This document shows positions 26,848-46,832 of a stretch of 63,450 bases of DNA, piece after piece. The stretch comes from an uncultured Candidatus Saccharibacteria bacterium (GTDB taxonomy: Bacteria; Patescibacteriota; Minisyncoccia; Spechtbacterales; HO2-43-30), in contig CAYJWU010000001.1 in NCBI GenBank assembly GCA_964374025.1, positions 1 to 63,450 on the forward strand, read 5' to 3'. Numbering within the stretch: position 1 is the first letter of the stretch; each line of letters starts with the position of its first letter. The translations under genes and the position numbers were made by a program. The notes under the pieces are model-generated. The model was given only the letters and a program-made list of their open reading frames with translations. It was not told the DNA's origin and searched no databases.

Positions 26848-26875
26848 GAAAAAAGGTTTAGTTGAAAGTTGCGCA

Positions 26876-28321: not shown

Positions 28322-28325
28322 AATG

Positions 28326-31285: not shown

Positions 31286-31299
31286 GGGGTGTGAAAAAA

Positions 31300-32127: not shown

Positions 32128-32132
32128 AGGAT

Positions 32133-32756
32133 TCAAAGATCTAAAAAGTTTTTAAAAATTTGCAGGCCATCCATATCGCTCTTTTCTGGATGAAACTGGG
32201 TCCCCCAGATATTGCCATCCTCAACCAGTGCCACAATATCATGACCATAGCAAGATGTGCCCGCAACTACACGCCTCTCGTCTGGCACAAAATGATAACT
32301 ATGCACAAAGTAGAAAATGGGCTCACTCTCAAATCTACTTGTTATTATATGGCGATTTTCTATCGCAACGTTGTTCCATCCAATATGAGGCAATCTATGC
32401 CCCGATTCCCTTGTATCAATTTTTACGACTTTTCCTTTTATGAAATCAAGTCCTTTATGCGATCCCCCTTCAAAACCCTCCGAGGCAAAAAGCTGCATAC
32501 CCAAACAAATTCCAAGGATTTTCTTTCTCTTTTCAACAACTTCTTCGCGTAAAACCGGAATGAGATTCCGCACACGGAGCCCCAAAATACCCGCGCCGAA
32601 ACTTCCCACGCCCGGCAATACAAGATGCGTCGCCTTCCTTATCGAATCTCGACTACTTGAAATTGTTGCCGATACTCCAAGCAGCTCCAGAGAATTCTTT
32701 ACTGACGTCAGATTTCCTACGCCATAATCAATTATGCAAACCTTGTGATAATACAT
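32133..32756 (-). CDS. HisH-like glutamine amidotransferase subunit (WbuY-type)
   Basis: CIIDYGVGNLTSV, GICLGMQ (nucleophile Cys), QFHPEKS. Confidence 0.85.
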   Translation of the reverse strand: MYYHKVCIIDYGVGNLTSVKNSLELLGVSATISSSRDSIRKATHLVLPGVGSFGAGILGLRVRNLIPVLREEVVEKRKKILGICLGMQLFASEGFEGGSHKGLDFIKGKVVKIDTRESGHRLPHIGWNNVAIENRHIITSRFESEPIFYFVHSYHFVPDERRVVAGTSCYGHDIVALVEDGNIWGTQFHPEKSDMDGLQIFKNFLDL

Positions 32757-32786
32757 AGTAATATAAAAATAAACACCTAAAAAACT

Positions 32787-34196
32787 TCACGCATGCCCAT
32801 TCTTAAGCCATTGAACATTTGAATATCTTTTATCTTCGTAATTCACTTTCCCATATTCGATCAAATCCTTAATCTCACGCACCCCATCCTCTATCTGCTT
32901 TGATGGAACGAAATGTAGCTCGCTTCGTGCCTTTCCAAAATCAACTTTATAATTTCTGATATCTGTTGCTCCCGTCTCTATTTGTATGCGCGCATCCGGT
33001 ACAACTTCGTGAACAATATCCCCCAGCTCCTCTATTCTGTAATTTTGCTCATTGCTGCCGCAGTTAAAAATCTGTCCGCCTACTTCTTGTATCGGCGCTT
33101 TAAGAATTTTTATAATAAATTCTCCGACATCTCTTACGTGCACATTCGGCCTCCATTGCTTGCCGCCCAAAATAGTTATAATTTTTCCTTTTACAGCCCG
33201 TGCTGTGAGTAAATTCACGACAAGATCAAATCGCGGCCTGAAAGATTTTCCGTATACAGTGGCCAATCTCAAGATAGTGGGCGCGAAATTCTCATCTCTC
33301 ATTTCAAGAAGCGCCCTCTCTGACGCAATCTTCATCCTTGCATAAAGTGAAACCGGCCTAAGCTCTGACTCTTCGTTGAGAAGCTCTTCGGATTCAGTCG
33401 CTCCGTACACACTACAGGAAGAAGTATATATTAACCTATTTATCTGGAAATATTTACACATCGAAGCAATAAGTCTAGTCGCAAGATAATTTGTCTGCAC
33501 TGTAATTTCAGGATTTATGGAACAGGCATAATCTCCAACAATCTCGGCAAGGTGTACTACTGCGTCCACATCGCGCATTGCGTCCGTTAAGTCTTCCACG
33601 TGCCTTGTGTCTCCTTTTACAATCCGAAGATTCCTTCGAGATTCTATGTCTTTTAATGAATCGTAGCCATATAAAAAAGCATCTAATACATTAACGTCAT
33701 AACCCCGGTCAAGCAAATCATGCACCAAAACAGATCCCGTATACCCTCCCCCTCCTATAACTAATATCTTCCTTACGTTTGGGGATCTCCAGCCACTGAA
33801 TTTGTTTTCCGAAAAGCGCGAAAATTTATCTCCGCGCACATCCAATATATCAACCACTTCTTTCGTCTTATTAACTAAAGGGATTTTAAAATATTCGAAT
33901 GGCCCGCGCGCAATTACCCTATTGCTCCTTAGAAATTTATTTATGCGGAAAAAATCCCACGAATCTTCCGCGACTAGCGGATCCGTATTCATAATAGAAG
34001 CTATATGCTCATCTATTCCCACGCCCCTCAAAATTGCTCTTCGCACGTCGCCGTCCGTTGCCGAACCAAGAATTTTCTTTTTTCCATCAACAACAAATAC
34101 AACTCTCTGTCCATTGCGATCTATAAGTCCAATGGCCTGTTTTATGCTAGCTTTATCACTAATCAGCATATCCAAAATTTTAGATCTGTTGTCCAT
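32787..34196 (-). CDS. CBS-domain pair fused to an NAD-dependent nucleotide-sugar epimerase/dehydratase
   Basis: N-terminal ~120 aa are CBS-like (VVFVVDGKKKILGSATDGDVRRAI). Then VIGGGGYTGS Rossmann motif and YARMK (YxxxK). Confidence 0.75.
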   Translation of the reverse strand: MDNRSKILDMLISDKASIKQAIGLIDRNGQRVVFVVDGKKKILGSATDGDVRRAILRGVGIDEHIASIMNTDPLVAEDSWDFFRINKFLRSNRVIARGPFEYFKIPLVNKTKEVVDILDVRGDKFSRFSENKFSGWRSPNVRKILVIGGGGYTGSVLVHDLLDRGYDVNVLDAFLYGYDSLKDIESRRNLRIVKGDTRHVEDLTDAMRDVDAVVHLAEIVGDYACSINPEITVQTNYLATRLIASMCKYFQINRLIYTSSCSVYGATESEELLNEESELRPVSLYARMKIASERALLEMRDENFAPTILRLATVYGKSFRPRFDLVVNLLTARAVKGKIITILGGKQWRPNVHVRDVGEFIIKILKAPIQEVGGQIFNCGSNEQNYRIEELGDIVHEVVPDARIQIETGATDIRNYKVDFGKARSELHFVPSKQIEDGVREIKDLIEYGKVNYEDKRYSNVQWLKNGHA

Positions 34197-34834
34197 TAAT
34201 CCGCCTTATAGATTTTAATGATATACTTATGGCCCCTGTATTTAAAAAAGGCAGGATATCTCCCATTATCTGCTACGCGCAAGTTATTGAACGCTTCTTT
34301 TATTGATTTATTGATATCCAGCTCGCCATCCCGCCAAGTTCTTCGGCGATACCATGAAGAGGTGCCTCGCTGAACCCTTGAAACAAAATTCGGATATTTT
34401 GCAATAAATTTAAGTGCCATTTCGATTACTTTGTTTGCCTGCTTTTCTCTAAGTTCGTCGTGTAACTCGTGGCCTTCTAGTATAATGTGATCTTCGAGAT
34501 AAATATTACCGCTGTCTACCTTTTCAGTTGCTTCGAATAAAGTAAACCAAATTTTCTTTTTCCCTTCGAGAACTTGCCATATGAGCGGAGCAAATCCGCG
34601 ACCTTGCGGCAATTTACTTCCATGTATAACAATATTATGTTTATTCAACTGTAATATATCCCTCCCAACAATTCTCTCGCAGCTTAAAAGAAACAAACAA
34701 TCGCCTCTTTTTATTTGACTATAACTATGCGCCAAAAAAACTGCGTGACCCTCTTTGCGCAAACTTTCTCTTAATCCTTTTGCGTGGGGGATAAACCAAC
34801 TACTTGGGTTATCCACCAAAATAGTAATCTTCAT
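34196..34834 (-). CDS. formyltransferase-family protein (Fmt/PurN-like N-terminal domain)
   Basis: NIVIHGSKLPQGRGFAPLIWQVLEG matches the formyl-transferase core. ATG at 34834 is preferred over the TTG at 34843. Confidence 0.7.
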   Translation of the reverse strand: MKITILVDNPSSWFIPHAKGLRESLRKEGHAVFLAHSYSQIKRGDCLFLLSCERIVGRDILQLNKHNIVIHGSKLPQGRGFAPLIWQVLEGKKKIWFTLFEATEKVDSGNIYLEDHIILEGHELHDELREKQANKVIEMALKFIAKYPNFVSRVQRGTSSWYRRRTWRDGELDINKSIKEAFNNLRVADNGRYPAFFKYRGHKYIIKIYKAD

Positions 34835-34855
34835 TGGTGGCAAGTTTATAAAATT

Positions 34856-35530
34856 TTAGTACTCCCGAATTGGATATCGAGTACCGTACCTTTCCTCTAG
34901 CTGCTTCAGCCCCCTTGCCACAAGTCCTCGATCTGCCGTTATGCTGTTTTCACGACGAATATAATGGAATAGGGGGGTTGCTACGTGCGCGCCTTTGTAT
35001 TTTTGATTCATTATTTTAATAAGAATATCGTATTCCGGAAAAATAAGTTCTTCGTCATATAACCCAACCTTAAAAAGAATCTCCTTCCTAAACATAATTC
35101 CTTCTGCGATACTGTTAAAAATATTATCGCCCAACGATACGACTTTTTTTGTGTTATTTCTTGAATGCTCCCAGTAATCGCAGTACGCAAATGCCGCTTT
35201 TTTATCTAGATTGAGTCGAGAATACAGCTCTTCTATACAATTTTTCTCAAACATATCGTCTGAATCCAGTAAAATCACGAAGGGGGTTGATGAATTTTTT
35301 ATACCAACATTAATCGCGGAAACAGGACCGGCATGCTCACTTTCTATTGCGCGGATTTTTTTATTAAAGCCGCGCACAATATTTATTGTCCCATCAGTTG
35401 ATCCGTCATCCACTACTATAACTTCGTATACGCCTCCCCCAAAAGATTGATCTAGCGCGCTAGAAATTGCTCTCTCAACAAACTCCCTAGAATTGAAAGT
35501 ACGTATAATAACACTAACTTTCGGTTTCAT
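34856..35530 (-). CDS. GT2 glycosyltransferase (SpsA-like, soluble)
   Basis: VSVIIRTFNSREFV, VVDDGSTDGT, LDSDD. Confidence 0.85.
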   Translation of the reverse strand: MKPKVSVIIRTFNSREFVERAISSALDQSFGGGVYEVIVVDDGSTDGTINIVRGFNKKIRAIESEHAGPVSAINVGIKNSSTPFVILLDSDDMFEKNCIEELYSRLNLDKKAAFAYCDYWEHSRNNTKKVVSLGDNIFNSIAEGIMFRKEILFKVGLYDEELIFPEYDILIKIMNQKYKGAHVATPLFHYIRRENSITADRGLVARGLKQLEERYGTRYPIREY

Positions 35531-35539
35531 ATTTGTCTT

Positions 35540-36646
35540 CTATTTAGTCAGTATATCGTCCCATGTTATGCTTTTGTTGGAAGGAATATCTTGCACCGCT
35601 CTATACCCTTTCATTAGTAAATCGTAGTACTTTGGCTCCAATCCGCTCCTGTTCTTTCCTGGGCGCAACACAGCAATGTTTCTTGAAGTAAACTTTTCTC
35701 CCTTTCTTATGCCCCGTATCGCAAAAATAGTCCTGTACAAAAAACTCCTATAGTAGTTCTCCTGCTTAATGTTTCGTTCGGTTTTGCCAAGCACAATTGA
35801 GTTTATTTTGATGTCGCCGCCTTTTCCGGCGCGGAGCTTATTTTCCGTATCCCTTATTGCTTTCACCATAGACTTCAATTCTCTGGGATTAAGCGCAAAA
35901 GAATGATCCGGCCCTGGCATGCGCCTATCTAATGTTATATGTTTTTCAACAACCTTAGCACCCAGAGCAACGGCTGCCTTTGGCCCCATGGCGGGATCTC
36001 GGCTATGGTCGGAAAACCCGACAATTGCGCGCGGAAAACATTGCTTAAACATATTTATTGTACGCAAATTTAAAACTTTTAGAGGAGCTGGGTATACGGC
36101 AACGCAATGCATAATAACTATCTTATTGTTGCCTTCGTTCTCTATAGCTTCCACGGCCTCTGCGATCTCTTTCAATTTAGCCATGCCAAATGAGATTATG
36201 ACGGGCTTATTCTTTTTTGCGACATGGCGGATGAGTGGTATGTGCGAAGATTCGGAAGATGTAATTTTATACGCATCTGTGCCAAATTTTTCCAGCATAT
36301 CCGCGCTGACCTCGTCGCAAACTGAAGAGAAAAACTCCAAGCCCTTTGCGTGCGAATATTTGCGCAATTTGGGCAGCCACGCAAATGGAAGCTCGGAGTC
36401 TCTAATAATCTCTAATATATCGCGCTTTTCCCCACTTGCAATTTTATATTTTCCTGCATTTTGAGGATACATTCTCCCTGCTCTAAAAAGTTGAAATTTA
36501 ACAGCGTTACAACCAGTTTCTGCCGCAACGTCAATTAACTGCAGAGCTTGCTCATACTTGCCGTCATAATTAATGCCGATTTCAGCGACTACAAAGCATG
36601 GATTTTCTGCTCCTATTTTTGTTTTGCCTATTTTGAATTCCTTCAT
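35540..36646 (-). CDS. nonulosonic acid synthase (NeuB / PseI / LegI family) with a C-terminal SAF domain
   Basis: VVAEIGINYDG, NAVKFQ, MHCVAVYPAP, GFSDHS, EKHITLD. Confidence 0.85.
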   Translation of the reverse strand: MKEFKIGKTKIGAENPCFVVAEIGINYDGKYEQALQLIDVAAETGCNAVKFQLFRAGRMYPQNAGKYKIASGEKRDILEIIRDSELPFAWLPKLRKYSHAKGLEFFSSVCDEVSADMLEKFGTDAYKITSSESSHIPLIRHVAKKNKPVIISFGMAKLKEIAEAVEAIENEGNNKIVIMHCVAVYPAPLKVLNLRTINMFKQCFPRAIVGFSDHSRDPAMGPKAAVALGAKVVEKHITLDRRMPGPDHSFALNPRELKSMVKAIRDTENKLRAGKGGDIKINSIVLGKTERNIKQENYYRSFLYRTIFAIRGIRKGEKFTSRNIAVLRPGKNRSGLEPKYYDLLMKGYRAVQDIPSNKSITWDDILTK

Positions 36647-36647
36647 A

Positions 36648-37793
36648 TTAAGATAATATTTCTTTTACTGAATGAATTACGTAGTTAACATCCCCTTTCG
36701 TCATTTTAGGATACAATGGGAGCGAAACTATTCTTCTGAATATTCCTTCCGTTATGGGCAAAATGCCCCGCTTATAACCGAATTTCTTTCGGTAAAAAGA
36801 TTGCATGTGCAGGGGTATAAAATGCACGCTTGCGGCTATGTTTTTCTTTGCGAGTTTTTCTATGAATAAATCTCGCGCAAAGCCTTCAACTAATATGGGG
36901 TATAAATGATATGCGTGCCTTGATAGGGCTTCTGTACTAAAAATTTTTATGCGCTTCAGGTCTTTCAGGCCATCCGTATACAGACTCGCGTATTCATTTC
37001 TTATTTTCATAAACTTATCTGCTTTTTTCAATTGACAAATACCGAGAGCCGCTTGGATATCAAACATATTGTACTTCCAACCCGCATATTCTATATCATA
37101 TCGCCAAGACCCGCCTTTAGAATATCTCTTCCAGGCATCTTTTGAAATTCCGTGCAGTCTGTTTTTTATTACGAAATCGGCAATGCTCCTGTTATTCGTT
37201 GTAAGCATCCCGCCTTCTCCCGTAGTAATGCACTTCGTAGGATAAAAACTAAAACAGGTTGTGTTGCCAAATGAACCAATCTTTTTCCCCCTATACTCAC
37301 TCCCTAGGGCATGAGCCGCGTCTTCGATAATAATGAGTTTCTTATTTTTTGCGATTTCATTAACTGCCTCAATATCATAGGGATTCCCGCCGTAATGAAC
37401 AGGGACAATAGCTTTTGTATTTCTCGTGATAGCGCCTTTTATTTTCTCGGGATCAATGTTTAATGTATCTTCCCTTATGTCGACAAATATAGGTTTTGCC
37501 CCTACGTTAACAACCATATTTGCGCAGGAAGCAAAAGTAAAAGAAGGCATTATCACCTCGTCTCCCGGACCTACGCCATGGGCAAGAAGAGCCAAATGTA
37601 GCGAGGCGGTACAGGATGTCAGCCCAATCGCGTATTTCACTCCGATGTATGACGCGAAATCCTTTTCAAATTGACGGGTCTTCGGGCCAGTAGATAGCCA
37701 CCCCGATCTAAGAATTGCTACTACCTCATTTATTTCATCCCTTTCAATTGTTGGCAGACAAAATGGCATAAATTTTTCATGCGCTTTATCCAT
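36648..37793 (-). CDS. DegT/DnrJ/EryC1-family PLP aminotransferase (PseC/LegC/SpsC-like)
   Basis: SCTASLHLAL, DAAHALG, SFYPTKCITTGEGG (PLP lysine context). Confidence 0.9.
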   Translation of the reverse strand: MDKAHEKFMPFCLPTIERDEINEVVAILRSGWLSTGPKTRQFEKDFASYIGVKYAIGLTSCTASLHLALLAHGVGPGDEVIMPSFTFASCANMVVNVGAKPIFVDIREDTLNIDPEKIKGAITRNTKAIVPVHYGGNPYDIEAVNEIAKNKKLIIIEDAAHALGSEYRGKKIGSFGNTTCFSFYPTKCITTGEGGMLTTNNRSIADFVIKNRLHGISKDAWKRYSKGGSWRYDIEYAGWKYNMFDIQAALGICQLKKADKFMKIRNEYASLYTDGLKDLKRIKIFSTEALSRHAYHLYPILVEGFARDLFIEKLAKKNIAASVHFIPLHMQSFYRKKFGYKRGILPITEGIFRRIVSLPLYPKMTKGDVNYVIHSVKEILS

Positions 37794-37796
37794 GGG

Positions 37797-38495
37797 TTAT
37801 CGCGAATTATTACGCAAAAATTCAATAATTTTTTCCAGTATAATTTCTCCTCTGTTATCACGGAAAAATACTGACTCTATTTTTTTAAACATTTGATAAT
37901 CCTCCTCTGTGTCTAATGTTAAACGAATGCCATCCGCGTTATACGACTTCAGGGGCGCTACATCCTTCTGCTTAAATAGTTCGGAATGTTTGTAGAAATA
38001 TGGAGTCACATGTTCGCGTTCGTAATCTAGTTTTGCGTCATGATGCGCGGCTTCAAGCGCGTGGAATGTAAATACCTCCGATCCGGTTCCCACGGGCATC
38101 CCGCTTCTATGGTTGCTCACGTAGTCTAAATTTTCATTTATCAAAATATCAACCAATCTGCTCATCTCTATCATATCTGTAAATATGTTATCGGAAGTAA
38201 CTCTGCCTATAATTTCGCTTGCAAATCTCCTCGCAGCTTCATAATATCGCCCAAGCACGTCCTGCTCGCTCCCTCGCGAATATATATATAATCTCTTTTT
38301 GCATAGTTCTTCTATGGCATCATCCTTCGGGTTAATAGTGGTCGCGACTATAACATTTCCCACGCGGCTGGAAGCCCTTGCGGATTCTACAATATACTCA
38401 AGTACTGATACTCCCGCAAATGGCAAGAGGACTTTCCCCGGCAAACGCGTTGATCCCATCCTTGCCTGTATAATAATATCTATGGCTCGTTTCAT
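37797..38495 (-). CDS. cytidylyltransferase of the SpsF / acylneuraminate cytidylyltransferase family
   Basis: IIIQARMGSTRLPGKVL N-terminus. Confidence 0.75.
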   Translation of the reverse strand: MKRAIDIIIQARMGSTRLPGKVLLPFAGVSVLEYIVESARASSRVGNVIVATTINPKDDAIEELCKKRLYIYSRGSEQDVLGRYYEAARRFASEIIGRVTSDNIFTDMIEMSRLVDILINENLDYVSNHRSGMPVGTGSEVFTFHALEAAHHDAKLDYEREHVTPYFYKHSELFKQKDVAPLKSYNADGIRLTLDTEEDYQMFKKIESVFFRDNRGEIILEKIIEFLRNNSR

Positions 38496-38508: not shown

Positions 38509-38760
38509 CTACCAATCCCTTATTTTATCACTAATGCTCTTCTTCATGCCGCGGTACCAATGTATCGCCCTTTTCTCAACCGCTGGAGATATAACCCTAA
38601 GCAATTCACGGCCCAAAAAACGATACTGCCCGCCAACTTTATTCGCGCGTATTATGCCCTTCTTTATCATACGCTTCATAGTGCTGCTGCTTACCTTAAG
38701 CAACATCTGTGTTTCCTTCGTGGTATATACTGCGTTTGGCTTTATCTCTTGATCTATCAT
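38509..38760 (-). CDS. excisionase/MerR-type helix-turn-helix DNA-binding protein
   Basis: YTTKETQMLLKVSSSTMKRMIKKGIIRANKVGGQYRF. ATG at 38760 is preferred over the TTG at 38790. First gene of the minus-strand sugar operon. Confidence 0.65.
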   Translation of the reverse strand: MIDQEIKPNAVYTTKETQMLLKVSSSTMKRMIKKGIIRANKVGGQYRFLGRELLRVISPAVEKRAIHWYRGMKKSISDKIRDW

Positions 38761-38866
38761 ATATAAATAAACTATACTAAATAGTACCAAAAGGTGTCAA
38801 TGAGTATCGCGGCTATTGCGCTATATAACAATATCTTGTTATCATATTCTCAATTACTTCTTGCAC

Positions 38867-38895
38867 TTGACTTCTATACCGAGAGGACCAATAAT
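38867..38895 (+). promoter_or_regulatory. candidate promoter TTGACT-17 nt-AATAAT for the + strand block
   Basis: Read directly. A second -10-like TAGTAT ends 6 nt before the ATG at 38911. There is no SD. Confidence 0.3.
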
Positions 38896-38910
38896 CAATA
38901 GTATCAAAGT

Positions 38911-39669
38911 ATGATTCCACTTAAAGAGGCTCTACTAAAAAATAAACTCTCCGTCGGCTCCTGGATTACCCTCGGTCATCCCGCGATAGCCGAAATGATG
39001 GCTAAGGCCGGTTTTGATTGGCTGACAATAGATATGGAGCATAGCGCGATTGATTTAGGCGATGCGCAAATACTTATGCAGGTTATTGAGCTCTCCGGCT
39101 GCACGCCTCTCGTCAGGGTTGGCGAAAACGACTCTTACTTGATAAAACGCGTGATGGATGCCGGAGCAAAGGGTGTCATCGTGCCAATGGTAAACAGCAA
39201 AGAGGAAGCTATAAAGGCCGTGGAGGCAGTAAAATATCCGCCCTTCGGGAAAAGGGGGGTGGGGCTGGGCAGGGCCCAAGGATATGGCCTGGAGTTTGAA
39301 AAATACAAAAAGTGGGCCGCGAAGGAAAGTGTTGTGATTGTCCAAGTTGAACATATTGAAGCAGTAAGAAACCTGGAGGCGATCCTCGCCGTAAAGGGCG
39401 TAGATGGCTTTATTGTCGGCCCGTATGATCTTTCGGGATCCTTGGGCGTTCCGGGTGAATTTGATAATCCCCAAGTCAAATCTGCCCTAGATCGCGTAAT
39501 AAAAATCGCGAAAAAGATGGGTAAAACAGCCGGTTTTCATGTAGTCTCTCCTGACCCAGAGCTTTTTAAGCGCAAGTTTGCCGAAGGATATCGGTTTCTC
39601 GCTTTTGGATTAGATACTCTCTTTTTAGGGGAATGCCTAAGGGAACGAATATCTAAAATTAAAAAATAG
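38911..39669 (+). CDS. HpcH/HpaI-family class II pyruvate aldolase (GarL/YfaU-like)
   Basis: GSWITLGHPAIAEMMAKAGFDWLTIDMEHS, VRV..ND, QVEH, FIGPYDLS. Confidence 0.8.
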   Translation: MIPLKEALLKNKLSVGSWITLGHPAIAEMMAKAGFDWLTIDMEHSAIDLGDAQILMQVIELSGCTPLVRVGENDSYLIKRVMDAGAKGVIVPMVNSKEEAIKAVEAVKYPPFGKRGVGLGRAQGYGLEFEKYKKWAAKESVVIVQVEHIEAVRNLEAILAVKGVDGFIVGPYDLSGSLGVPGEFDNPQVKSALDRVIKIAKKMGKTAGFHVVSPDPELFKRKFAEGYRFLAFGLDTLFLGECLRERISKIKK

Positions 39670-39670
39670 C

Positions 39671-40459
39671 ATGAAAAATCCAAAAAAGAAACTTAGAGTC
39701 ATCGGCATTATACCCGCGAGAATGGGATCAAGCAGATTCCCGGGAAAACCTTTGGCAAAAATTCTCGGCGTTCCCATGGTTGGGCATGTGTATTTTCGCT
39801 GTAAAATGGCCAAATCTCTTGACGAGGTTTATATCGCCACTTGTGATAAAGAAATAATGGACTACGCGTCATCTATCGGGGCCAAGGCAGTGATGACTAA
39901 AGACACCCACGAGCGCGCTTCAGACAGATCTGCCGAAGCAATGCTTAAAATTGAGAAAGGGCTGAAGCAAAAACAGGATATCGTTGTAATGATTCAGGGC
40001 GACGAACCCATGGTGCACCCCAAAATGATAGATGCTTCAGTAAAACCCCTTCTCAAAGACTCTTCCGTTCTTGTAAGCAATCTCACCGAGCCAATCGAAA
40101 GCCAAGAGGAACATGAAGATCCAAACTGCATAAAAGTGGTTTTGGATAAAAGGAACTTCGCGGTATATATGTCCCGCGAGCCGATCCCTACTCGTAAAAA
40201 GGGCGCGACTGGATTTCCAATGTGGAAACAGGTTTGCATAATCCCCTTTCGGCGCGACTTTTTGCTTAAATTTAATCAGTTAAAGCCCACTCCCCTTGAA
40301 ATTGCGGAATCAATTGATATGCTGCGCGTTTTGGAACATGGCTATAAAGTGAAGATGGCGCCCACTCCCTTTCAAACCCATAGTGTTGATACAAGAGAAG
40401 ATTTGGAACTGGTTCAAAGATTAATGGCTAACGACCCCCTAATAGTCAAATATTCATGA
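39671..40459 (+). CDS. KdsB-family cytidylyltransferase (CMP-ulosonic acid synthetase-like)
   Basis: VIGIIPARMGSSRFPGKPLAKILGVPMVGHV; IQGDEPM. Confidence 0.8.
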   Translation: MKNPKKKLRVIGIIPARMGSSRFPGKPLAKILGVPMVGHVYFRCKMAKSLDEVYIATCDKEIMDYASSIGAKAVMTKDTHERASDRSAEAMLKIEKGLKQKQDIVVMIQGDEPMVHPKMIDASVKPLLKDSSVLVSNLTEPIESQEEHEDPNCIKVVLDKRNFAVYMSREPIPTRKKGATGFPMWKQVCIIPFRRDFLLKFNQLKPTPLEIAESIDMLRVLEHGYKVKMAPTPFQTHSVDTREDLELVQRLMANDPLIVKYS

Positions 40460-41358
40460 AAATAGTTATATCCACAACCACATTTGGAGAATTCGATCAG
40501 AGCCCAGTAAAGATGCTAGAAAACGCCAGCGTAGATTTCACGCTCAATCCATACCGACGCAAATTAACCAGCGAAGAAGTAGTGGATTTCGCCAAAGACG
40601 CAGCGGGAATTATTGCCGGCACCGAATCGTTAAATGGCGACGTTCTACGACAACTCAAGGGCCTCAAAGTTATCTCCCGTTGCGGAGCAGGAGTTGATAA
40701 TGTGGACTTTAAGACCGCGGGTGAGCTTGGAATAAACGTCTATAGCACTCCCTACGGCCCAACAAGAGCAGTGGCTGAATTAACCGTTGGTTTAATGCTT
40801 GATTGCTTGAGGGGTATCTCACAAAGCGATAGATCTATCCGGAGGGGTGAGTGGCAAAAGCCCATGGGCTGGCTGTTGGAGGGGAAGACCGTGGGCATAG
40901 TTGGCTTCGGGAGAATCGGCAAAACAGTCTGCCGGCTGCTTCAGCCCTGGGGGGTAAAAATTATAGCGTATGATATTGTCCCGCCGCTGGATAACTTAGG
41001 AGCAACAATAGTAACTCTTGGAAATTTAATAACGAACTCGGACATTATCACGCTTCATACGCCGAGTGACGCCGGCTGTATTATCAATGCTTCTTCTATC
41101 GCTAAAATGAAAGACGGGGCCATTGTTATCAATGCCTCTCGCGGAGATTTGGTTGATGAAAACGCCCTCTATGACGCAATAACATCAAAAAAACTAGCCG
41201 GCGCGGGCATTGATACCCCCTCGGAAGAGCCATATGTTGGAAAATTAAGAGAGTTGGAAAACATAATTCTCACATCGCACATTGGTTCTTACGCGAAAGA
41301 AGCCCGCGTTCTAATGGAAAAGCAGGCAGTGGAGAACCTGCTTAATGGGTTAGCATAA
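40456..41358 (+). CDS. D-isomer-specific 2-hydroxyacid dehydrogenase (PGDH/glycerate dehydrogenase-like)
   Basis: GKTVGIVGFGRIGKTV, ASRGDLVDE, TSHIGS. Confidence 0.85.
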   Translation: MKIVISTTTFGEFDQSPVKMLENASVDFTLNPYRRKLTSEEVVDFAKDAAGIIAGTESLNGDVLRQLKGLKVISRCGAGVDNVDFKTAGELGINVYSTPYGPTRAVAELTVGLMLDCLRGISQSDRSIRRGEWQKPMGWLLEGKTVGIVGFGRIGKTVCRLLQPWGVKIIAYDIVPPLDNLGATIVTLGNLITNSDIITLHTPSDAGCIINASSIAKMKDGAIVINASRGDLVDENALYDAITSKKLAGAGIDTPSEEPYVGKLRELENIILTSHIGSYAKEARVLMEKQAVENLLNGLA

Positions 41359-41370
41359 GCCCTATCGCTA

Positions 41371-42327
41371 ATGGACATCTTTATAAATAGAGAGTTTGAC
41401 AAATATTACGCGCATTCTCCTATCGTGCATCTCGACATTGGCGCCAGCGGTGGCCTGCAAAAAAATTGGCGTGGGGCTCGAAGGCATTTAATTAAAATTT
41501 TCGTAGAGCCAGACGAACATACTTTCAATAACCTATCAAAAAACGCTGACGAGGGGACAATACTAATCAGTACTCCACTGTACAGCGAGAGAAAATTCAT
41601 AGATTTTTATATATGCAGGAAACAAGAGGTTTCGTCTATATATTTTCCAAACAGAGAGTTTTTGAATCAGTTTCCCGACCCCCAACGTTTTGATGTCATA
41701 GATACAACCAAATTAGAAGCTGACACCTTGGATAATGTTCTTAAAAAATACAATACCCCGGATAAAAAATATGTAATTGATTTCATAAAGGTTGACACGC
41801 AAGGCAGTGAGCTTGATATTATCCGGGGCGCGACAGAAACAATCAAAAATGGCGTTATGGGATTAGAGGTTGAAGTTGAATTTGCGGAAATATACAAGGG
41901 CCAGCACTTTTTTGAAGACGTGAATACTTTTCTTCGAGAACATGGTTTTGTTTTTTTTGACTTTACGCAAACAACGCATTGGCGAAAAAAGAAATTTTTT
42001 GGAAGCGGACAGCTCGTATCCGCGGACGCTCTTTATTTTAAAAAACTAGATTTATTCATCAACGAGATGAATCGCCTGCCTATTTTGACAAAAAAAATCG
42101 GGGTGCTTAAGTATATGAGCTTATGCCATTTATACAAAAATTTCGACCACGCGAATACTTTATTTAGAACATTCTCGGATCTATTTACCGAGCGGGAGGA
42201 GAGGGCTATTAATTTACTGTATCAAAAGCATTATTTAATATCCCTCGCGCGAAATCCTTCGCGCTTTTTAAAAACGCCAGGAAAAATATACAAATTATTT
42301 CGTAATTTAAAAAATAATGAGTCCTAA
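41371..42327 (+). CDS. FkbM-family methyltransferase
   Basis: HLDIGASGG and IKVDTQGSELDIIRGA. Confidence 0.75.
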   Translation: MDIFINREFDKYYAHSPIVHLDIGASGGLQKNWRGARRHLIKIFVEPDEHTFNNLSKNADEGTILISTPLYSERKFIDFYICRKQEVSSIYFPNREFLNQFPDPQRFDVIDTTKLEADTLDNVLKKYNTPDKKYVIDFIKVDTQGSELDIIRGATETIKNGVMGLEVEVEFAEIYKGQHFFEDVNTFLREHGFVFFDFTQTTHWRKKKFFGSGQLVSADALYFKKLDLFINEMNRLPILTKKIGVLKYMSLCHLYKNFDHANTLFRTFSDLFTEREERAINLLYQKHYLISLARNPSRFLKTPGKIYKLFRNLKNNES

Positions 42328-42967
42328 TCGAAAAATCGAAACGATTATCTTTGATTTTGACGGGGTAATTGTGGAATCCATGGGCATTAAAGAAAATGCC
42401 TTTATTTCTTTATTTAAAAGTTACCCGGATCATCTGGAAAAAATCGTAGCCCTGCACAGGGCGCATGGAGGACTCTCCCGCTTTGAAAAATTCAAAATTA
42501 TTTATAAAGATATTCTTGGCCTCCCATACAGCGAAGAAATAGAAAGGGAACTTGGGAATAAATTTGCGAAGTACGTTTACGAAGAAGTTGTGCGATGTCC
42601 GTTTGTGGCCGGCGCCAAAGAGTTTTTAGAAAAATATCATAAAGAACTATCCTTTTTCATAGTTTCCGGCACCCCAGAAGTAGAGATGCGCAACATCACA
42701 AGGGCTCGCGGACTCGACAAATACTTTATTGGGGTTTTTGGTTCTCCGGAAAAAAAAGGCGCGATATGCCAGAAAATTTTGCGCTCGCGTAGGTTATCGC
42801 GCGATACCGTCATAATGGTTGGCGATTCAATTGACGACTATGATGGCGCAAAGGAAGCTCAAATTAAATTTATCGGCAGAATAACCGACAAAAACACTTT
42901 TGCGGGCTTGAGTATAGAGGGAACAATTCATGATTTTTTTGAATTAGAAAAATATCTTGGCAACTAA
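42317..42967 (+). CDS. HAD-superfamily phosphatase
   Basis: IIFDFDGVIVES (DxD nucleophile motif); VGDSIDDYDGA. Confidence 0.8.
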   Translation: MSPNRKIETIIFDFDGVIVESMGIKENAFISLFKSYPDHLEKIVALHRAHGGLSRFEKFKIIYKDILGLPYSEEIERELGNKFAKYVYEEVVRCPFVAGAKEFLEKYHKELSFFIVSGTPEVEMRNITRARGLDKYFIGVFGSPEKKGAICQKILRSRRLSRDTVIMVGDSIDDYDGAKEAQIKFIGRITDKNTFAGLSIEGTIHDFFELEKYLGN

Positions 42968-44396
42968 ACTTACATCCTACGAAACAGCTTTGGCACTATA
43001 CGGACTGATTTTTTCCCAGCTTAAAAGGAAGGAACAGCGTTATTTCTTGGGAACCATAAAGCACGATTTTGTGTTTTTTATTTTTGCTCTAATCGTAAAC
43101 GGCACGCGCCGGGACAATGGAAATTTTCAATCGAAAAGCAGAATAATTCCAAGAAACTTTAATGAATGGCATTTTGGCAAAAGGCGCATTACTTTTGATA
43201 ACACTGCCCCAAACGAAAGCAATTCCTCTCTCTGGAACAGAGATCGCGACTATTTTTTAAACAATACCAGCGCAAGGAAAAATACGGACGGAATTGCTGT
43301 TTTAACCTACGGGATAGATTTAGAAAAATCTTTTGAACTTGAGAACCTAACAAAGGAAAGGGAGATTAAGGCGATAGTTGATTGGAAGGGCGACCTCAAA
43401 CACGCAAATATCAATGGCGCTATGGTGGTTAAAAAATCTCTCATTTCAAACATAAAATCACTTCCCTACTTTTTAGAAAACCTTGCCGCTTTGGCTCCTA
43501 TTTATCGCGGCCTTGCGAAAAACTGCGGCCTCCGCTGCTCTCTTCCGGCTTTTTTGAGATACTTTATTTACTATGCTTTTGCTTCCGCGCGCATTCGTTC
43601 GATTATAAGCCGTCTGTCCAAGGACAACCGTATCGGAAAAGTTATGCTTTCCGATTTAGATAACGTAGTTGGCAATTCGTTTTCATTATGGAGCCAATTT
43701 TACGGATTTTCGCAGATTGTCTATCCGCACGGCTCTCCTGTTTTTCTTAATAAAAACCGATATTTTGAGCCGGACGAATACTACATCTGGACGACATATC
43801 AGAAAACATACGCGAAGGAAACCCAAAACAGCAGAACTAAATTTATACCTTTTCCCCCGAAGTGGCTTCAAAAGTTTTCGATAAAACAAAAAGAAGAGGT
43901 TAGGAAAATCACTATCGTCACGGCCATGGAAGAGAATTTAGAAATCCCCTTCGGGAATAAGGAGAAGCTGATTGACTATATTGAGGAAATTTGCGAATTC
44001 GCGCTTGAAAGAAATATTCTAGTCAATATAAAATCGCATAAGCTCTTGGATTGGCATGACGAATATGATAAATTATGCGCGCGATATAAAAATTTAACGC
44101 ATGTCAAAAGTCGCTGGAATATAGAGGAGATCACAGAAACTGACATTGGCGTCTTAATGAATACGAGCTCCACGCTTAGCCTACAGCTTCTTTATTGCGG
44201 AATTCCGGTAATAACCTGCGAGGAATCAATGTCCGAAATTGTACCGAAGCATTTTTCGGCCCCGCGCTTACAATTTATAGTCAAAAATAAAATAGAGCTA
44301 CTCAAGATTTTGGAACAATTGACTTCCGACAAGGAGTTCTACAAAAAAGCCCAAACCCAAGCCCTTGAAACTTTCCGCTCAATTTTCGCTACCTAA
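42957..44396 (+). CDS. uncharacterised GT-B-like transferase (TagF/KpsS/sialyltransferase-like C-terminal half)
   Basis: VYPHGSP, IKSHKLLD, GVLMNTSSTLSLQLLYCGIPVI. TTG start, so the start is uncertain. Confidence 0.4.
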   Translation: MATKLTSYETALALYGLIFSQLKRKEQRYFLGTIKHDFVFFIFALIVNGTRRDNGNFQSKSRIIPRNFNEWHFGKRRITFDNTAPNESNSSLWNRDRDYFLNNTSARKNTDGIAVLTYGIDLEKSFELENLTKEREIKAIVDWKGDLKHANINGAMVVKKSLISNIKSLPYFLENLAALAPIYRGLAKNCGLRCSLPAFLRYFIYYAFASARIRSIISRLSKDNRIGKVMLSDLDNVVGNSFSLWSQFYGFSQIVYPHGSPVFLNKNRYFEPDEYYIWTTYQKTYAKETQNSRTKFIPFPPKWLQKFSIKQKEEVRKITIVTAMEENLEIPFGNKEKLIDYIEEICEFALERNILVNIKSHKLLDWHDEYDKLCARYKNLTHVKSRWNIEEITETDIGVLMNTSSTLSLQLLYCGIPVITCEESMSEIVPKHFSAPRLQFIVKNKIELLKILEQLTSDKEFYKKAQTQALETFRSIFAT

Positions 44397-44401
44397 CTTC
44401 C

Positions 44402-45238
44402 ATGAAAAAAATCTATCTATTTCTTGAGCCCCTATTAATATTCGTTGTTAAGAAAATCCCGGTTAAGCTGCTTCTGCGAATAAAGCAAAATACCCATTTG
44501 GTGAAGAAAATGGACTACTCCCGCCATGATATCTTCCTAAATATAGACTCAACATTTGAAAATCATGCTCGCCCCATTTCATGCGCGAGCGAACCCGAAA
44601 CGGTGCGATGGATAGAAACATTTTTCAGGAGCGGCGAAGTTTTTTACGATATAGGCGCGAATGTAGGCGCGTATTCGTTTGTCGCGGCAAAATTTTTCAA
44701 CGGAAATATAAAAGTATACGCGTTTGAACCGGCTTTCATGACCTATGCTCAACTTTGCAGAAATATTCTCTTAAATAACTGCGAAGATTGCATTACTCCC
44801 CTACCAATTGCTCTCGCCGATAAAACCGCTATAAATACTTTCAACTACCATAACCTCGCTACCGGCAGCTCAATCCACGCGCTTGGCGAAGCCATAGATG
44901 ATAGGGGCAGGCCTTTTGAGCCCCTAGCCAAACAACGGGTTCTCGCGTTCAGCATTGATGACCTAATTAGGCAATTTAATATGCCGATCCCAAATCACAT
45001 CAAGATTGACGTTGACGGCATTGAGCTTGCGATATTAAAAGGCGCGGAAACGACCCTAGAAAGTCCTCTCGTCAGGAGCATACTCTTGGAATTACAAAAG
45101 GGGGACTCGGAAACAAACGCGGCCGTTCAATTCTTGAGGAGCAAGGGGTTTGAATTTCACTCCAAGCATCAGGACCGAAACTACATTTTTGTAAAAAAGT
45201 ATGCAAAAAACCTGCCACATTTACCAAAAACGCGCTGA
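44402..45238 (+). CDS. FkbM-family methyltransferase
   Basis: FYDIGANVGAYS, VYAFEP, IKIDVDGIELAILKGA. Confidence 0.8.
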   Translation: MKKIYLFLEPLLIFVVKKIPVKLLLRIKQNTHLVKKMDYSRHDIFLNIDSTFENHARPISCASEPETVRWIETFFRSGEVFYDIGANVGAYSFVAAKFFNGNIKVYAFEPAFMTYAQLCRNILLNNCEDCITPLPIALADKTAINTFNYHNLATGSSIHALGEAIDDRGRPFEPLAKQRVLAFSIDDLIRQFNMPIPNHIKIDVDGIELAILKGAETTLESPLVRSILLELQKGDSETNAAVQFLRSKGFEFHSKHQDRNYIFVKKYAKNLPHLPKTR

Positions 45239-46832
45239 TACGTCTCCGAGTCAAGCTAATGCTTACGCCATTGAGGATTATACTGACTTCGGATCTGTCC
45301 AAAGGGCGGCGGAAATCAACAGAGATCTCTTCCTCGATGAATGGAATAAAGGGTATATAAAGGGCCTTACATATCAAGGATACGAATTAAGTTGGGCGGT
45401 TTATGATACCTTATATCATCGATTTTCTTTTCCGGTAACTCAAATAGAAAAATTATGGGAGGAAGTTAAAAATTATGAAAAAATTGTTTTGCATAATATC
45501 TATGATCCGTACGATTTTGTTTTAAAGCATCTTTGTTTTAACAAAAAATTAGAAATTAAAAACAGAAGTAAAATCTTTGAAAAAATAAAGGCAAAGAAGT
45601 TGTTTTTGATTTTTACCGCTTTTATAATTGCTATTATAGGCATCGCGTACTTCACCGTCTCAAAACGAAAAATCGCGGTATGGTCTAGCGATATGATATA
45701 CCCCGGAACTGATTCGGATTTTCGCGTAAACAAACTTTACGAGAATTTACGCGTAAATAATTTAAGGTTTCTGGAATTTGTCCGGCTCAATGACATATCA
45801 AGTCTATTTAAAAACTTTTTCATAAGAAAAAGGCTTGTAATTTACTACCAGCCCATTATTTACCTATTTTCTCCATTCATTATCCCGCGGAAACTCGCTC
45901 CAAAATCCATCTATAACTCGGCCTTACTATCATGCGATCGCGATATTCGGCTTGCCGCGAAAGTCATTCCAATCTTCCGGGCTATTTATAAACTTTTCGG
46001 CATAAGGTCTCTATGGACGCTATATTTCACGTCGCGAAATGTTTCCCTTGTAATTGCGGCGAAATGCTCCGGGATAAAAACAGTTGGGATGAAGCATGGG
46101 GCCGGCACAAAATCGTATGATATTTTTGAATTCATTCCCGCGTATTCTTCGGAAAAAAAACTTGGGCCGGATGTTTTTGGGGTGTGGAGCGCTTGGTGGC
46201 AGGATTATTTCCGGAAATACAGCAAAATTTTTGCCGAGGACTCTGTAAGGTACGCTGGACTTCTTAGGCCATATACCTTGCGGCAAATTTCAGAATCTAG
46301 TCCCGCAGTTGCGGGACAAAAAGCGCAAAACAACAAAATTAAAATCATGCTGCTCTCCGAACCCCTGACCGACCCAAAAGAAATCGCGCCCTACTTAAAA
46401 GTTTTACTGCGCGATCAACGCTTTTCCGTGGCTATCAAAATAAGGCCAATGATTAAGGATTTATTTTATGAAGAACTGCTGAAATTAATGCCGGAGGTGA
46501 AGTTTTTGCCTAAATACAGCGGAAACATTTTTGAGGACGGGAAAAAAGCCGATGTATTTTTAGGATCCCATACTACAGCCCTGCTTGAGGCCTCGCTTAT
46601 AAACCGACTTTCGATATTTGTGAAAACACAAAAGTGGGGTGACTATTTCGATTTGAGCGATATAGTTCCCGAACTCAACATCCTCGTTGAAGATCCTAAA
46701 GAGCTGCCGCAAAATATTATTTTGAGAATAAACCAAGAGCCCAAATTGAAAACCATTGAAAAAATCAAAACACGCTACTTTGGAGAAAATAAAGACGGCG
46801 CAAAGTGGGCCGTAAGCGAACTCAATATATAA
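45201..46832 (+). CDS. uncharacterised membrane-anchored GT-B-like transferase, same architecture as 42957-44396
   Basis: One TM (LFLIFTAFIIAIIGIAYFTV), GMKHGAG, DVFLGSHTTALLEASLINRLSIFV. Confidence 0.4.
   Translation: MQKTCHIYQKRADTSPSQANAYAIEDYTDFGSVQRAAEINRDLFLDEWNKGYIKGLTYQGYELSWAVYDTLYHRFSFPVTQIEKLWEEVKNYEKIVLHNIYDPYDFVLKHLCFNKKLEIKNRSKIFEKIKAKKLFLIFTAFIIAIIGIAYFTVSKRKIAVWSSDMIYPGTDSDFRVNKLYENLRVNNLRFLEFVRLNDISSLFKNFFIRKRLVIYYQPIIYLFSPFIIPRKLAPKSIYNSALLSCDRDIRLAAKVIPIFRAIYKLFGIRSLWTLYFTSRNVSLVIAAKCSGIKTVGMKHGAGTKSYDIFEFIPAYSSEKKLGPDVFGVWSAWWQDYFRKYSKIFAEDSVRYAGLLRPYTLRQISESSPAVAGQKAQNNKIKIMLLSEPLTDPKEIAPYLKVLLRDQRFSVAIKIRPMIKDLFYEELLKLMPEVKFLPKYSGNIFEDGKKADVFLGSHTTALLEASLINRLSIFVKTQKWGDYFDLSDIVPELNILVEDPKELPQNIILRINQEPKLKTIEKIKTRYFGENKDGAKWAVSELNI
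46300..46317. repeat. hairpin GTCCCGC-AGTT-GCGGGAC inside the 45201-46832 ORF
   Basis: Read directly. Encodes SPAVAGQ. Same 7-bp stem as 12689-12705. Confidence 0.75.

Follow-up and report, generated by a model that had tools for sequence, protein, structure and literature searches.

A recurrent gene cassette pairing a class II pyruvate aldolase with a KdsB-like cytidylyltransferase, a candidate route to a CMP-activated sugar acid

We analysed a window of 63,450 nucleotides from an uncultured Candidatus Saccharibacteria bacterium (contig CAYJWU010000001.1), and in particular a block of genes at positions 38911–46832 that opens with a pyruvate aldolase and a putative cytidine monophosphate (CMP)-sugar-acid synthetase. 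A check of the open reading frames (ORFs) places eight of them in a row on the + strand, at the coordinates given by a first-pass annotation that had been made from the sequence alone. Neighbouring ORFs are separated by gaps of at most 12 nt or overlap by 4–38 nt, an operon-like arrangement. The eight-gene content of the block is certain and is listed below, with the family match or the structural method behind each assignment in brackets.

38911–39669, + strand: HpcH/HpaI class II pyruvate aldolase, 252 aa (PF03328, 5.5e-38)
39671–40459, + strand: KdsB-like CMP-sugar-acid synthetase (CTP_transf_3), 262 aa (PF02348, 9.3e-48)
40456–41358, + strand: D-isomer 2-hydroxyacid dehydrogenase (2-HADH), 300 aa (PF02826, 2-Hacid_dh_C, 1.7e-49)
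41371–42327, + strand: FkbM S-adenosylmethionine (SAM) methyltransferase 1, 318 aa (PF05050, 4.9e-16)
42317–42967, + strand: HAD-IA hydrolase, presumed small-molecule phosphatase, 216 aa (PF13419, HAD_2, 2.7e-16)
42957–44396, + strand: orphan GT-B-fold protein, 479 aa, TTG start (AlphaFold2 and Foldseek)
44402–45238, + strand: FkbM SAM methyltransferase 2, 278 aa (PF05050, 2e-16; TIGR01444, 1.3e-29)
45201–46832, + strand: membrane-anchored GT-B-fold protein, 543 aa (AlphaFold2 and Foldseek)

Scans with Pfam and NCBIfam gave family matches for six of the eight proteins and none for the 479-aa and 543-aa proteins, whose models match GT-B structures as described below; the first-pass gene list was thus right, including its guesses at the folds. 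It was also right that this is the sole long + strand block, the other one (22522–25049) holding two genes. The 479-aa ORF begins with a TTG codon at 42957 and overlaps the HAD gene by 11 nt; the overlap between the 543-aa ORF and the second FkbM gene is 38 nt long (45201–45238). Homolog lengths fit both starts.

The gene set is not peculiar to this genome. Below, "cassette" denotes the recurring gene set around the aldolase and the cytidylyltransferase, and L numbers denote the genome or metagenome loci fetched for comparison. A scan that took one genome per species found the aldolase clade in at least 598 species genomes, and 80 loci were fetched. The first three loci looked at each combine the aldolase with a CTP_transf_3 gene, a 2-HADH and a HAD hydrolase. 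A CTP_transf_3 gene lies on the same strand within 3.5 kb of the aldolase in 71 of the 80 loci and directly adjacent to it in 44; where the flanks are long enough, it stands beside the aldolase in 53 of 59 loci, and the remaining six have one farther off. A reciprocal scan from the KdsB-like clade, made in metagenomes, returned at least 568 loci, and the aldolase is present in 31 of the 38 that were fetched and have at least 2.5 kb of upstream sequence. The co-occurrence analysis proposed in the first-pass annotation is thus strongly positive in both directions. Usually the aldolase gene is immediately upstream of the cytidylyltransferase gene, with overlapping stop and start codons. More than 100 of the loci fetched, drawn from unrelated phyla, hold the same gene set; the arrangement of the block is thus far beyond chance, and synteny effectively refutes a chance co-location of its genes.

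Two unrelated CTP_transf_3 lineages stand beside the same aldolase, namely the KdsB-like lineage of the window and a PseF-like lineage of ~225 aa. The recruitment of two lineages is good evidence, at the level of gene content, that the aldolase product or a derivative of it would be cytidylylated. Genes for nonulosonic acids (NulOs) are adjacent in the window and in ~17 of the 80 loci, and loci bearing NeuB usually hold a second, NeuB-adjacent cytidylyltransferase, which argues that the KdsB-like enzyme has a substrate of its own. In addition, full cassettes occur without NulO genes in L167/L168, in Ferdinandcohnia and on an Acuticoccus plasmid. In L167/L168, the order is Wzx, aldolase, cytidylyltransferase, class I methyltransferase, 2-HADH, SDR epimerase, PF04199 "cyclase", HAD hydrolase and a 40%-identical homolog (P0147) of the 543-aa protein; stops and starts overlap, and no NulO gene lies within 10 kb. 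Hosts of the cassette include archaea, Firmicutes and bacteria of the candidate phyla radiation (CPR), which have no lipopolysaccharide (LPS), so that a role in supplying 3-deoxy-manno-octulosonate (Kdo) for lipid A is unlikely.

The Acuticoccus locus (L086; Acuticoccus sp. I52.16.1, plasmid NZ_CP094833.1, 40686–45138) comprises a five-gene core of aldolase, cytidylyltransferase, 2-HADH, HAD hydrolase and NAD(P)-dependent oxidoreductase on a 97-kb plasmid, by repABC genes, indicating that the cassette can be plasmid-borne. PGAP gives generic names to cassette parts, for example on this plasmid.

The aldolase matches PF03328 with 130.9 bits (cutoff 25; E 5.5e-38). Specifically, residues H44, R69, E147 and D173 align with H49, R74, E153 and D179 of YfaU, which we take to be, as in HpaI, the catalytic histidine and arginine and the two metal-binding carboxylates. 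All four are kept and are invariant in 22 clade members, which supports the earlier assignment to class II. The clade is distinct, with 55–80% identity across phyla, and the window protein scores well under the NCBIfam HpaI/RhmA/GarL equivalog cutoffs (202.8 against 368.8, 179.2 against 441, 170.7 against 393 and 167.3 against 406.75). It has more than 7800 homologs; the closest 120, at 63–90% identity, come from CPR bacteria, Omnitrophota, Thermodesulfobacteriota, Firmicutes, anammox bacteria, Methanolobus and Hadarchaeum. Database names on the homologs include 2-dehydro-3-deoxyglucarate aldolase. The best plasmid-borne relatives of catabolic type are ~40% identical, and in phages the search returned no relevant homolog, only two 29% matches in Staphylococcus phages.

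The cytidylyltransferase, a member of a distinct clade that NCBI names PRK13368, scores 318.2 bits with the model of that name (cutoff 255) and 158.4 bits with the kdsB equivalog TIGR00466 (cutoff 155.2), and its best relative in the PDB is KpsU, the E. coli capsule CMP-Kdo synthetase (1gq9, 6.5e-44). We aligned 49 members of the KdsB-like clade with KpsU and Yersinia KdsB and use KpsU numbering. The catalytic, nucleotide-binding and metal-binding residues R10, K19, Q96-G-D98-E-P, R155, R204 and D225 are kept in the clade, and R10, K19, QGDEP and D225 are conserved in 46–49 of the 49 members; the Mg-binding roles of the two aspartates are taken from PMC3149649. The KdsB-type enzyme claimed for the block therefore has its catalytic residues intact. 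KpsU and Yersinia KdsB agree at eight positions where the clade carries substitutions (Y11M, D51C, S75R, T124N, H172Q, Y176I, E201D and Q202M), each replacement being found in at least 46 of the 49 members except Y176I (42 of 49); together, E201D and Q202M convert LEQLR to VDMLR. Since these fixed changes fall at positions common to the two reference CMP-Kdo synthetases, Kdo is probably not the substrate, and the pattern, which is the one expected for the same chemistry on another acid, suggests as much. No KdsA/DAHP_synth_1 domain was found among the 48 ORFs scanned in the 63-kb window.

The 2-HADH holds PF02826 and PF00389 domains, and its best PDB match is the phosphoglycerate dehydrogenase (PGDH) of P. 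horikoshii (1wwk, 7.8e-50). The catalytic-type triad R229, E258 and H275 is conserved in 56–57 of 57 clade members. The best NCBIfam models are likewise phosphoglycerate dehydrogenases, far under cutoff (TIGR01327, 217 against 454). Where PGDH 1wwk has V-R-S-K, the clade (n = 57) has A-G-(T/L/V)-E, and V-R-S is presumably the phosphate (anion-binding) site of PGDH. The absence of this motif weakens the idea that the dehydrogenase and the phosphatase could make hydroxypyruvate from 3-phosphoglycerate, and we down-weight the hydroxypyruvate route accordingly. We place the 2-HADH in the pathway. Of the 47 loci with long flanks, 42 carry it, and in 39 of those 42 it stands alongside a HAD hydrolase, an IMPase-family protein, or a pair made up of an adh_short protein and a 3-dehydroquinate-synthase (DHQS)-like protein. 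The HAD-IA hydrolase has weak matches to named phosphatases and orthologs in 31 loci; the other two solutions replace it elsewhere. That the 2-HADH is so strictly accompanied by one of three unrelated means of removing phosphate suggests that an intermediate of the route is phosphorylated. DHQS acts on a 3-deoxy-ulosonate phosphate, and a DHQS-like enzyme beside a pyruvate aldolase suggests an intermediate of this kind, similar to 3-deoxy-D-arabino-heptulosonate 7-phosphate (DAHP).

The adh_short and DHQS-like pair replaces the HAD hydrolase in L014, L016, L024, L029, L042, L048, L069, L073, L077 and L082, and loci with this pair usually also carry a GmhA-like SIS protein and a GFO/IDH/MocA oxidoreductase. 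In the Ferdinandcohnia cassette (L003), a fumarylacetoacetate-hydrolase-family protein is encoded right after the 2-HADH (11695–12288); its weak, far-below-cutoff matches include 2,4-didehydro-3-deoxy-L-rhamnonate hydrolase.

The two proteins without family matches were modelled with AlphaFold2 from small alignments, and both models are confident, with a predicted local distance difference test score (pLDDT) of 82.8 for the 479-aa and 89.3 for the 543-aa protein. Foldseek searches of the PDB at E ≤ 1e-3 returned 212 and 231 matches, respectively, with a best E of ~4e-9, and the best 50 listed matches of each model are GT-B glycosyltransferases or GT-B-fold epimerases. The term "GT-B-like", used in the first-pass annotation, therefore holds at the level of the fold. 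The best match of the 479-aa protein is PglH (6eji, 4.5e-9), while the 543-aa protein has generic GT-B matches, with TarL (8va1) at rank 4. Neither protein has a Pfam match to the TagF-type domain Glyphos_transf (PF04464), and Capsule_synth (PF05159) is matched neither by the 543-aa protein, even at E 0.5, nor by the 479-aa protein at E 0.01. The description of the 543-aa protein as membrane-anchored agrees with one strongly hydrophobic segment at about residues 135–153 (Kyte-Doolittle 2.55). We do not treat the 479-aa and 543-aa proteins as paralogs: BLASTP finds no similarity between them, and hhalign gives 4.8%.

A word-indexed search found 18–19 relatives of each orphan protein, and an exhaustive profile search extended the 543-aa family to 1324 representative clusters at E ≤ 1e-3 and 541 at E ≤ 1e-10. 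Many cassettes of other phyla are closed by Pfam-less proteins of 580–690 aa, which we aligned as A6 (clusters c15/c30). The 543-aa family aligns with A6 in hhalign (98.5%, E 2e-15, 230 columns), and a single metagenome ORF in L123 matches both profiles. The sole solved relatives of A6 are the KpsC beta-Kdo transferases 8fuw/6mgc (E 5e-5), and a His-Pro motif, typical of CMP-ulosonate GT-B enzymes, is invariant in A6. The resulting link between the 543-aa protein and KpsC is transitive and distant, too indirect to assign it to the KpsC family, and is suggestive for the mechanism; we propose the 543-aa protein as the candidate transferase for the CMP-activated acid. The first-pass annotation had connected the transferases of this region with families that use CMP-ulosonate donors, and this stands as far as Capsule_synth membership, found in a neighbouring 481-aa protein, or the distant KpsC link is concerned, and the weak Maf/MptE-like genes of variant cassettes add to it; the 543-aa protein itself has no Pfam match to Capsule_synth.

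For the 479-aa family, 19 homologs were found, seen only in Parcubacteria-type metagenome-assembled genomes (MAGs). In a Nealsonbacteria locus, the gene after the HAD gene encodes an ortholog with 46% identity, and L169 has another in the same place. The family aligns with A6 at 91% in hhalign (E 1e-6). Homologs of the first FkbM methyltransferase occur in five other cassette loci and those of the second in eight cassette loci.

The variant of the cassette with the PseF-like cytidylyltransferase carries, between that gene and the aldolase, a Pfam-less family of 395–470 aa (alignment A4), comprising L016:8589–9986, L026:8591–9778 and six relatives. A GxGPS...CNS motif in the A4 family recalls Cst-II (GT42) and Maf proteins, and the family has a weak MptE-like/Maf match (0.0022); no relative was found in the PDB. 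Giant proteins near this variant carry clear MptE-like and GT2 domains. The A4 protein ("X") was considered as kin of the 479-aa and 543-aa proteins of the window, and comparison shows that it is unrelated to them.

We give an even chance to the reading that the block represents, in this genome, a widespread cassette whose products make a CMP-activated 2-keto sugar acid unlike Kdo and the nonulosonic acids and put it to use. From the observed gene content, catalytic residues, folds and conserved synteny, we infer every chemical step of the scheme that follows. The class II aldolase would condense an aldehyde or aldose, which may be phosphorylated, with pyruvate or with a 3-substituted 2-oxoacid, and the product would be a 4-hydroxy-2-oxo acid able to close to a hemiketal. 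The HAD hydrolase would take off a phosphate somewhere on the route, and the KdsB-like enzyme would couple the anomeric 2-OH to CMP from cytidine triphosphate (CTP). The 2-HADH could provide the 2-oxoacid donor, work on an alpha-hydroxy-acid group at the distal end, or convert aldonate and 2-keto forms into each other. The two FkbM enzymes, together with a class I methyltransferase encoded at 28326–29321, would O-methylate the acid or the finished glycan. The membrane-anchored 543-aa GT-B protein would then use the CMP-linked acid as donor and a lipid-linked molecule or a polymer as acceptor, a role in which the 479-aa GT-B protein, the KpsC/KpsS-like 481-aa protein, or both may share, and an ABC transporter would export the acceptor.

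Judged from sequence comparison, the cassette is a probable new form of CMP-ulosonic acid biosynthesis, in which another enzyme forms the C–C bond, the activating enzyme is divergent and the transferase family has no name. In the literature searched, we found no account of glycan synthesis that combines an HpcH aldolase with a cytidylyltransferase; one paper on phosphonates that names KdsB had no bearing on it. The fullest version of the reading, in which hundreds of species of Bacteria (including CPR) and Archaea make a hitherto unknown class of CMP-activated, methylated ulosonic acid, built by an aldolase independently of phosphoenolpyruvate (PEP) and installed by a KpsC-related family of at least 1300 clusters, we place somewhat below an even bet. 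In a stranger version, the trio of 2-HADH, cytidylyltransferase and transferase may activate a non-classical 2-hydroxy or 2-oxo acid.

Several points weigh against a CMP-acid route that runs through the aldolase and a KpsC-like transferase. The 2-HADH targets the very 2-keto group that is needed for CMP activation, and its near-constant presence is awkward, straining a simple scheme from aldolase to cytidylyltransferase; a few loci with both of these enzymes, moreover, lack the 2-HADH and the phosphatase. The aldolase is absent nearby in ~20% of the KdsB-like loci, in which the 2-HADH and the 543-type protein are kept and an FkbM gene, a fusion of GT2 with a zinc-type alcohol dehydrogenase (Zn-ADH) or a radical-SAM/SPASM gene is sometimes found, so that the aldolase may be one of several feeder routes. 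Of the aldolase-based route put forward in the first-pass annotation, the co-occurrence and the intact catalytic residues bear up in our comparisons; the aldolase is not obligatory. As for the transfer step, the comparison with KpsC, KpsS, TagF and sialyltransferases that had been proposed for the 479-aa and 543-aa proteins turned up none of them among the best 50 listed Foldseek matches per model (TM 0.4–0.6), except TarL among the generic ones. The 543-aa family has Arg415-Pro416 at the position of the His-Pro motif and the 479-aa family has Ser-His-Lys, and a search of the PDB with the 543-family profile finds nothing. Finally, the cytidylyltransferase does pass the TIGR00466 cutoff, if barely, and the functional meaning of the eight substitutions leans on our assumption that several of these positions line the Kdo site.

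Some of these points can be read in other ways. The 2-HADH, the cytidylyltransferase and the 543-type transferase could be the core, with the aldolase as an optional feeder; an aldonic or 2-hydroxy acid would be oxidised to a 2-keto acid (for example, a 2-keto-aldonate) and then CMP-activated or, less conventionally, a 2-hydroxy acid would itself be activated. The three genes do occur together without the aldolase in L123, L155, L161, L169 and L170, the 2-HADH family includes 2-ketogluconate reductases (9m0t is among the PDB matches), and the cassette often includes enzymes of aldose-dehydrogenase type (GFO, SDR, Zn-ADH) and a possible hydrolase (PF04199). We nevertheless regard this core as improbable, given that the aldolase is found in ~80% of the KdsB-like loci, usually immediately upstream with stop and start codons overlapping, and that L021, L030 and L081 have the aldolase and the cytidylyltransferase without a 2-HADH; the aldolase-less loci were viewed over 8–10 kb only, and an aldolase may sit elsewhere in those genomes. 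A catabolic aldolase of ordinary HpaI/RhmA/GarL type, unrelated to glycan synthesis, would fit the database names and the catabolic roles of characterised relatives. It is hard to reconcile with scores far under all three equivalog cutoffs, with tight, translationally coupled synteny with glycan genes in many phyla and both prokaryotic domains, or with a neighbourhood in which no aromatic or sugar-acid catabolic genes were found, and we attach almost no weight to it.

The identity of the product can be questioned as well. The cassette might make authentic CMP-Kdo, by means of a Kdo aldolase run in reverse (D-arabinose and pyruvate; Kdo aldolase, EC 4.1.2.23, is a known activity), a true CMP-Kdo synthetase and KpsC/S-like beta-Kdo transferases. 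Both the TIGR00466 and the PRK13368 cutoffs are passed, the best solved relative is KpsU, and KpsC/S-like proteins lie nearby; set against this, the eight clade-fixed replacements, including H172Q and the change from LEQLR to VDMLR, and the lack of any role for the 2-HADH, the phosphatase and the methyltransferases make CMP-Kdo quite an unlikely product. The cassette might instead make no glycosyl donor at all, its product being a 3-deoxy-aldonic acid that decorates the nonulosonic acid of a NeuB module in the same region. The aldolase would act on pyruvate and glyceraldehyde or its 3-phosphate, the 2-HADH would reduce C2, the phosphatase would act, and O2 would be methylated, so that each of these enzymes, methyltransferases included, finds a role. 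The product would resemble the 2-methoxy-4,5,6-trihydroxyhexanoyl group, that is, 2-O-methyl-3-deoxyhexonate, on the pseudaminic acid of Treponema denticola flagellin (PMC13439194). The NulO genes beside the block and in the ~17 loci fit such a scheme, as does the presence of the cassette in a Spirochaetia locus (L044). It leaves no role for the cytidylyltransferase, the most constant partner, or for the KpsC- and Maf-like transferases, and no amide-forming enzyme is conserved in the cassette; in addition, full cassettes exist with no NulO genes within 10 kb, and NeuB-bearing loci usually have a separate NulO cytidylyltransferase. We therefore doubt that a side chain is what the cassette makes.

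If the cassette does make a CMP-activated 2-keto sugar acid, it shares its proposed logic with the pathway to Kdo and to the beta-Kdo linker of capsules (KdsD, KdsA, KdsC, KdsB/KpsU; KpsC/KpsS, GT107), which also involves a 2-keto-3-deoxy acid, dephosphorylation by a HAD enzyme, CTP-dependent activation by the KdsB family and transfer by a GT-B enzyme of the KpsC/S kind. The cassette differs in that the C–C bond would be formed by a metal-dependent pyruvate aldolase (PF03328) instead of the PEP-dependent KdsA, in that its HAD hydrolase is of the capped HAD-IA type and not KdsC, and in its clade-fixed cytidylyltransferase substitutions, its extra 2-HADH and methyltransferases and its hosts without LPS. 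With the nonulosonic acid pathways (NeuB/PseI/LegI, NeuA/PseF/LegF, Maf/KpsS-like), it has in common a CMP-activated alpha-keto acid for surface glycans, and in one of its variants the cytidylyltransferase is PseF-like and a further protein weakly Maf/MptE-like; unlike these pathways, it has no NeuB-family synthase inside and occurs without NulO genes. The HpcH/HpaI class II aldolases (HpaI, YfaU/RhmA, GarL and the hydroxyketoacid aldolase 6r62) have the same fold, the same His/Arg/Glu/Asp set and 4-hydroxy-2-oxo acid chemistry, and some of them take hydroxypyruvate as donor. The characterised members are catabolic, whereas the cassette clade sits in glycan operons and far below the equivalog cutoffs. 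The T. denticola flagellin glycan is alike in chemistry only: its acyl group is the expected product of an aldolase, a 2-HADH and an O-methyltransferase acting on pyruvate and glyceraldehyde, and this chemistry leaves the cytidylyltransferase and the GT-B proteins of the cassette unexplained.

To our knowledge, PEP-dependent synthases of KdsA or NeuB type serve every established route by which activated keto sugar acids are made (Kdo, sialic, pseudaminic, legionaminic acids and Kdn). If the proposed route is real, it would be a third general one beside these two, and it would imply a new sugar on the surfaces of uncultured CPR bacteria, DPANN and methanogenic archaea, anammox bacteria and Omnitrophota. 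A Pfam-less transferase family of more than 1300 representative clusters would also gain a function, and the labels "3-deoxy-manno-octulosonate cytidylyltransferase" and "2-dehydro-3-deoxyglucarate aldolase", carried in hundreds of genomes, would probably be wrong here. New CMP-linked ulosonic acids are still emerging by mass spectrometry, as in a 2026 preprint. Class II pyruvate aldolases are useful biocatalysts, and a biosynthetic clade with a defined sugar product would have practical value. The cassette is present in cultured strains (Syntrophomonas wolfei subsp. methylbutyratica JCM 14075, Sulfurimonas sp. CS5, Methanolobus sp. ZRKC4 and Ferdinandcohnia sp. Marseille-Q9671), which puts the question within reach of direct tests.

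Other variants of the cassette carry further enzymes. B12-binding radical SAM enzymes of ~480–540 aa are often encoded between the aldolase and the cytidylyltransferase (L002, L022, L034, L039, L065, L079, L123 and others), and in L169 a radical-SAM/SPASM protein stands in the place of the aldolase; these enzymes may be C-methylases or carbon-skeleton modifiers acting on the acid. In the aldolase-less variants L123 (8805–10691) and L155 (1645–3498), a GT2 domain fused to a zinc-type medium-chain alcohol dehydrogenase (617–628 aa) is encoded right after the KdsB-like gene.

Beyond the eight genes, the window holds further features that bear on the block. The eight-gene list of the first-pass annotation stands, and it overlooked three cassette-linked genes at 25039–29321 and the separate NeuB module.

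25039–26847, − strand: ATP-binding cassette (ABC) exporter with fused transmembrane and nucleotide-binding domains, 602 aa (ABC_membrane and ABC_tran)
26876–28321, − strand: KpsC/KpsS-like (Capsule_synth) GT-B protein, 481 aa (PF05159, 29.7 bits against a cutoff of 20)
28326–29321, − strand: class I SAM methyltransferase, 331 aa (Methyltransf_23, 1.5e-15)
35540–38495, − strand: PEP-dependent NulO module (NeuB-family synthase, 2.8e-77; DegT aminotransferase, 1.4e-132; PseF/NeuA-like cytidylyltransferase, CTP_transf_3, 1.3e-34)
38509–38790, − strand: small HTH_17 DNA-binding protein, divergent from the block (PF12728, on the identical gene in L001)
38791–38910: divergent intergenic region of 120 bp, with promoter-like hexamers for the + strand operon and for the − strand HTH gene

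The class I methyltransferase matches proteins in 29 cassette loci (median 173 bits) and is the counterpart of the ~340-aa methyltransferase encoded between the aldolase and the cytidylyltransferase elsewhere. The exporter matches 12 cassette loci (median 161 bits), and its type is found just upstream of the aldolase elsewhere. The 481-aa protein has a "VKEHP" motif and aligns with A6 across the HP-motif region (hhalign 84%, E 7e-6); it is a candidate CMP-ulosonate transferase, either for the acid of the cassette or for the neighbouring nonulosonic acid. An HTH_17 gene is also present in the related Parcubacteria locus L169, which shares with the window the order HTH_17, ABC, Capsule_synth; the product of the window gene is a possible local regulator. 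In the intergenic region, promoter-like sites read TTGACT-17-AATAAT (38867–38895, + strand) and TTGACA-18-TATAGT (38800–38771, − strand); these are consensus matches only, and the total count in our scan for promoters and terminators at the operon boundaries does not exceed that of shuffled controls.

The NulO module, directly upstream of the block on the other strand, is complete and separate, and the glycan island probably makes two different CMP-activated acids. The module (29325–38495, − strand) also has a GT2, a formyltransferase-like protein, a CBS-fused SDR, HisH/HisF-like proteins and a Pfam-less partner of 385 aa; the HisH/HisF-like pair and this partner may form an acetamidino group.

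Downstream of the block lie GT4 genes, methyltransferases, an AsnB-like protein and a deacetylase. Further upstream are a Wzy_C-TPR protein and a Bac_transf initiating transferase, followed by the ABC exporter, Capsule_synth and methyltransferase genes. SecA, encoded at 841–3480, indicates a chromosomal context, and the nearest relatives of several window proteins are found in Nealsonbacteria, Spechtbacteria and Parcubacteria MAGs, so that a host within the CPR/Patescibacteria is probable. The Wzy_C protein (10741–12780, − strand, 679 aa) has an O-antigen ligase/polymerase-like domain fused to C-terminal TPR repeats. Two AsnB-like glutamine amidotransferases (Asn_synthase) are encoded on the − strand at 17121–19001 and 51973–53832, for which amidation of a uronic or ulosonic carboxylate is a possibility.

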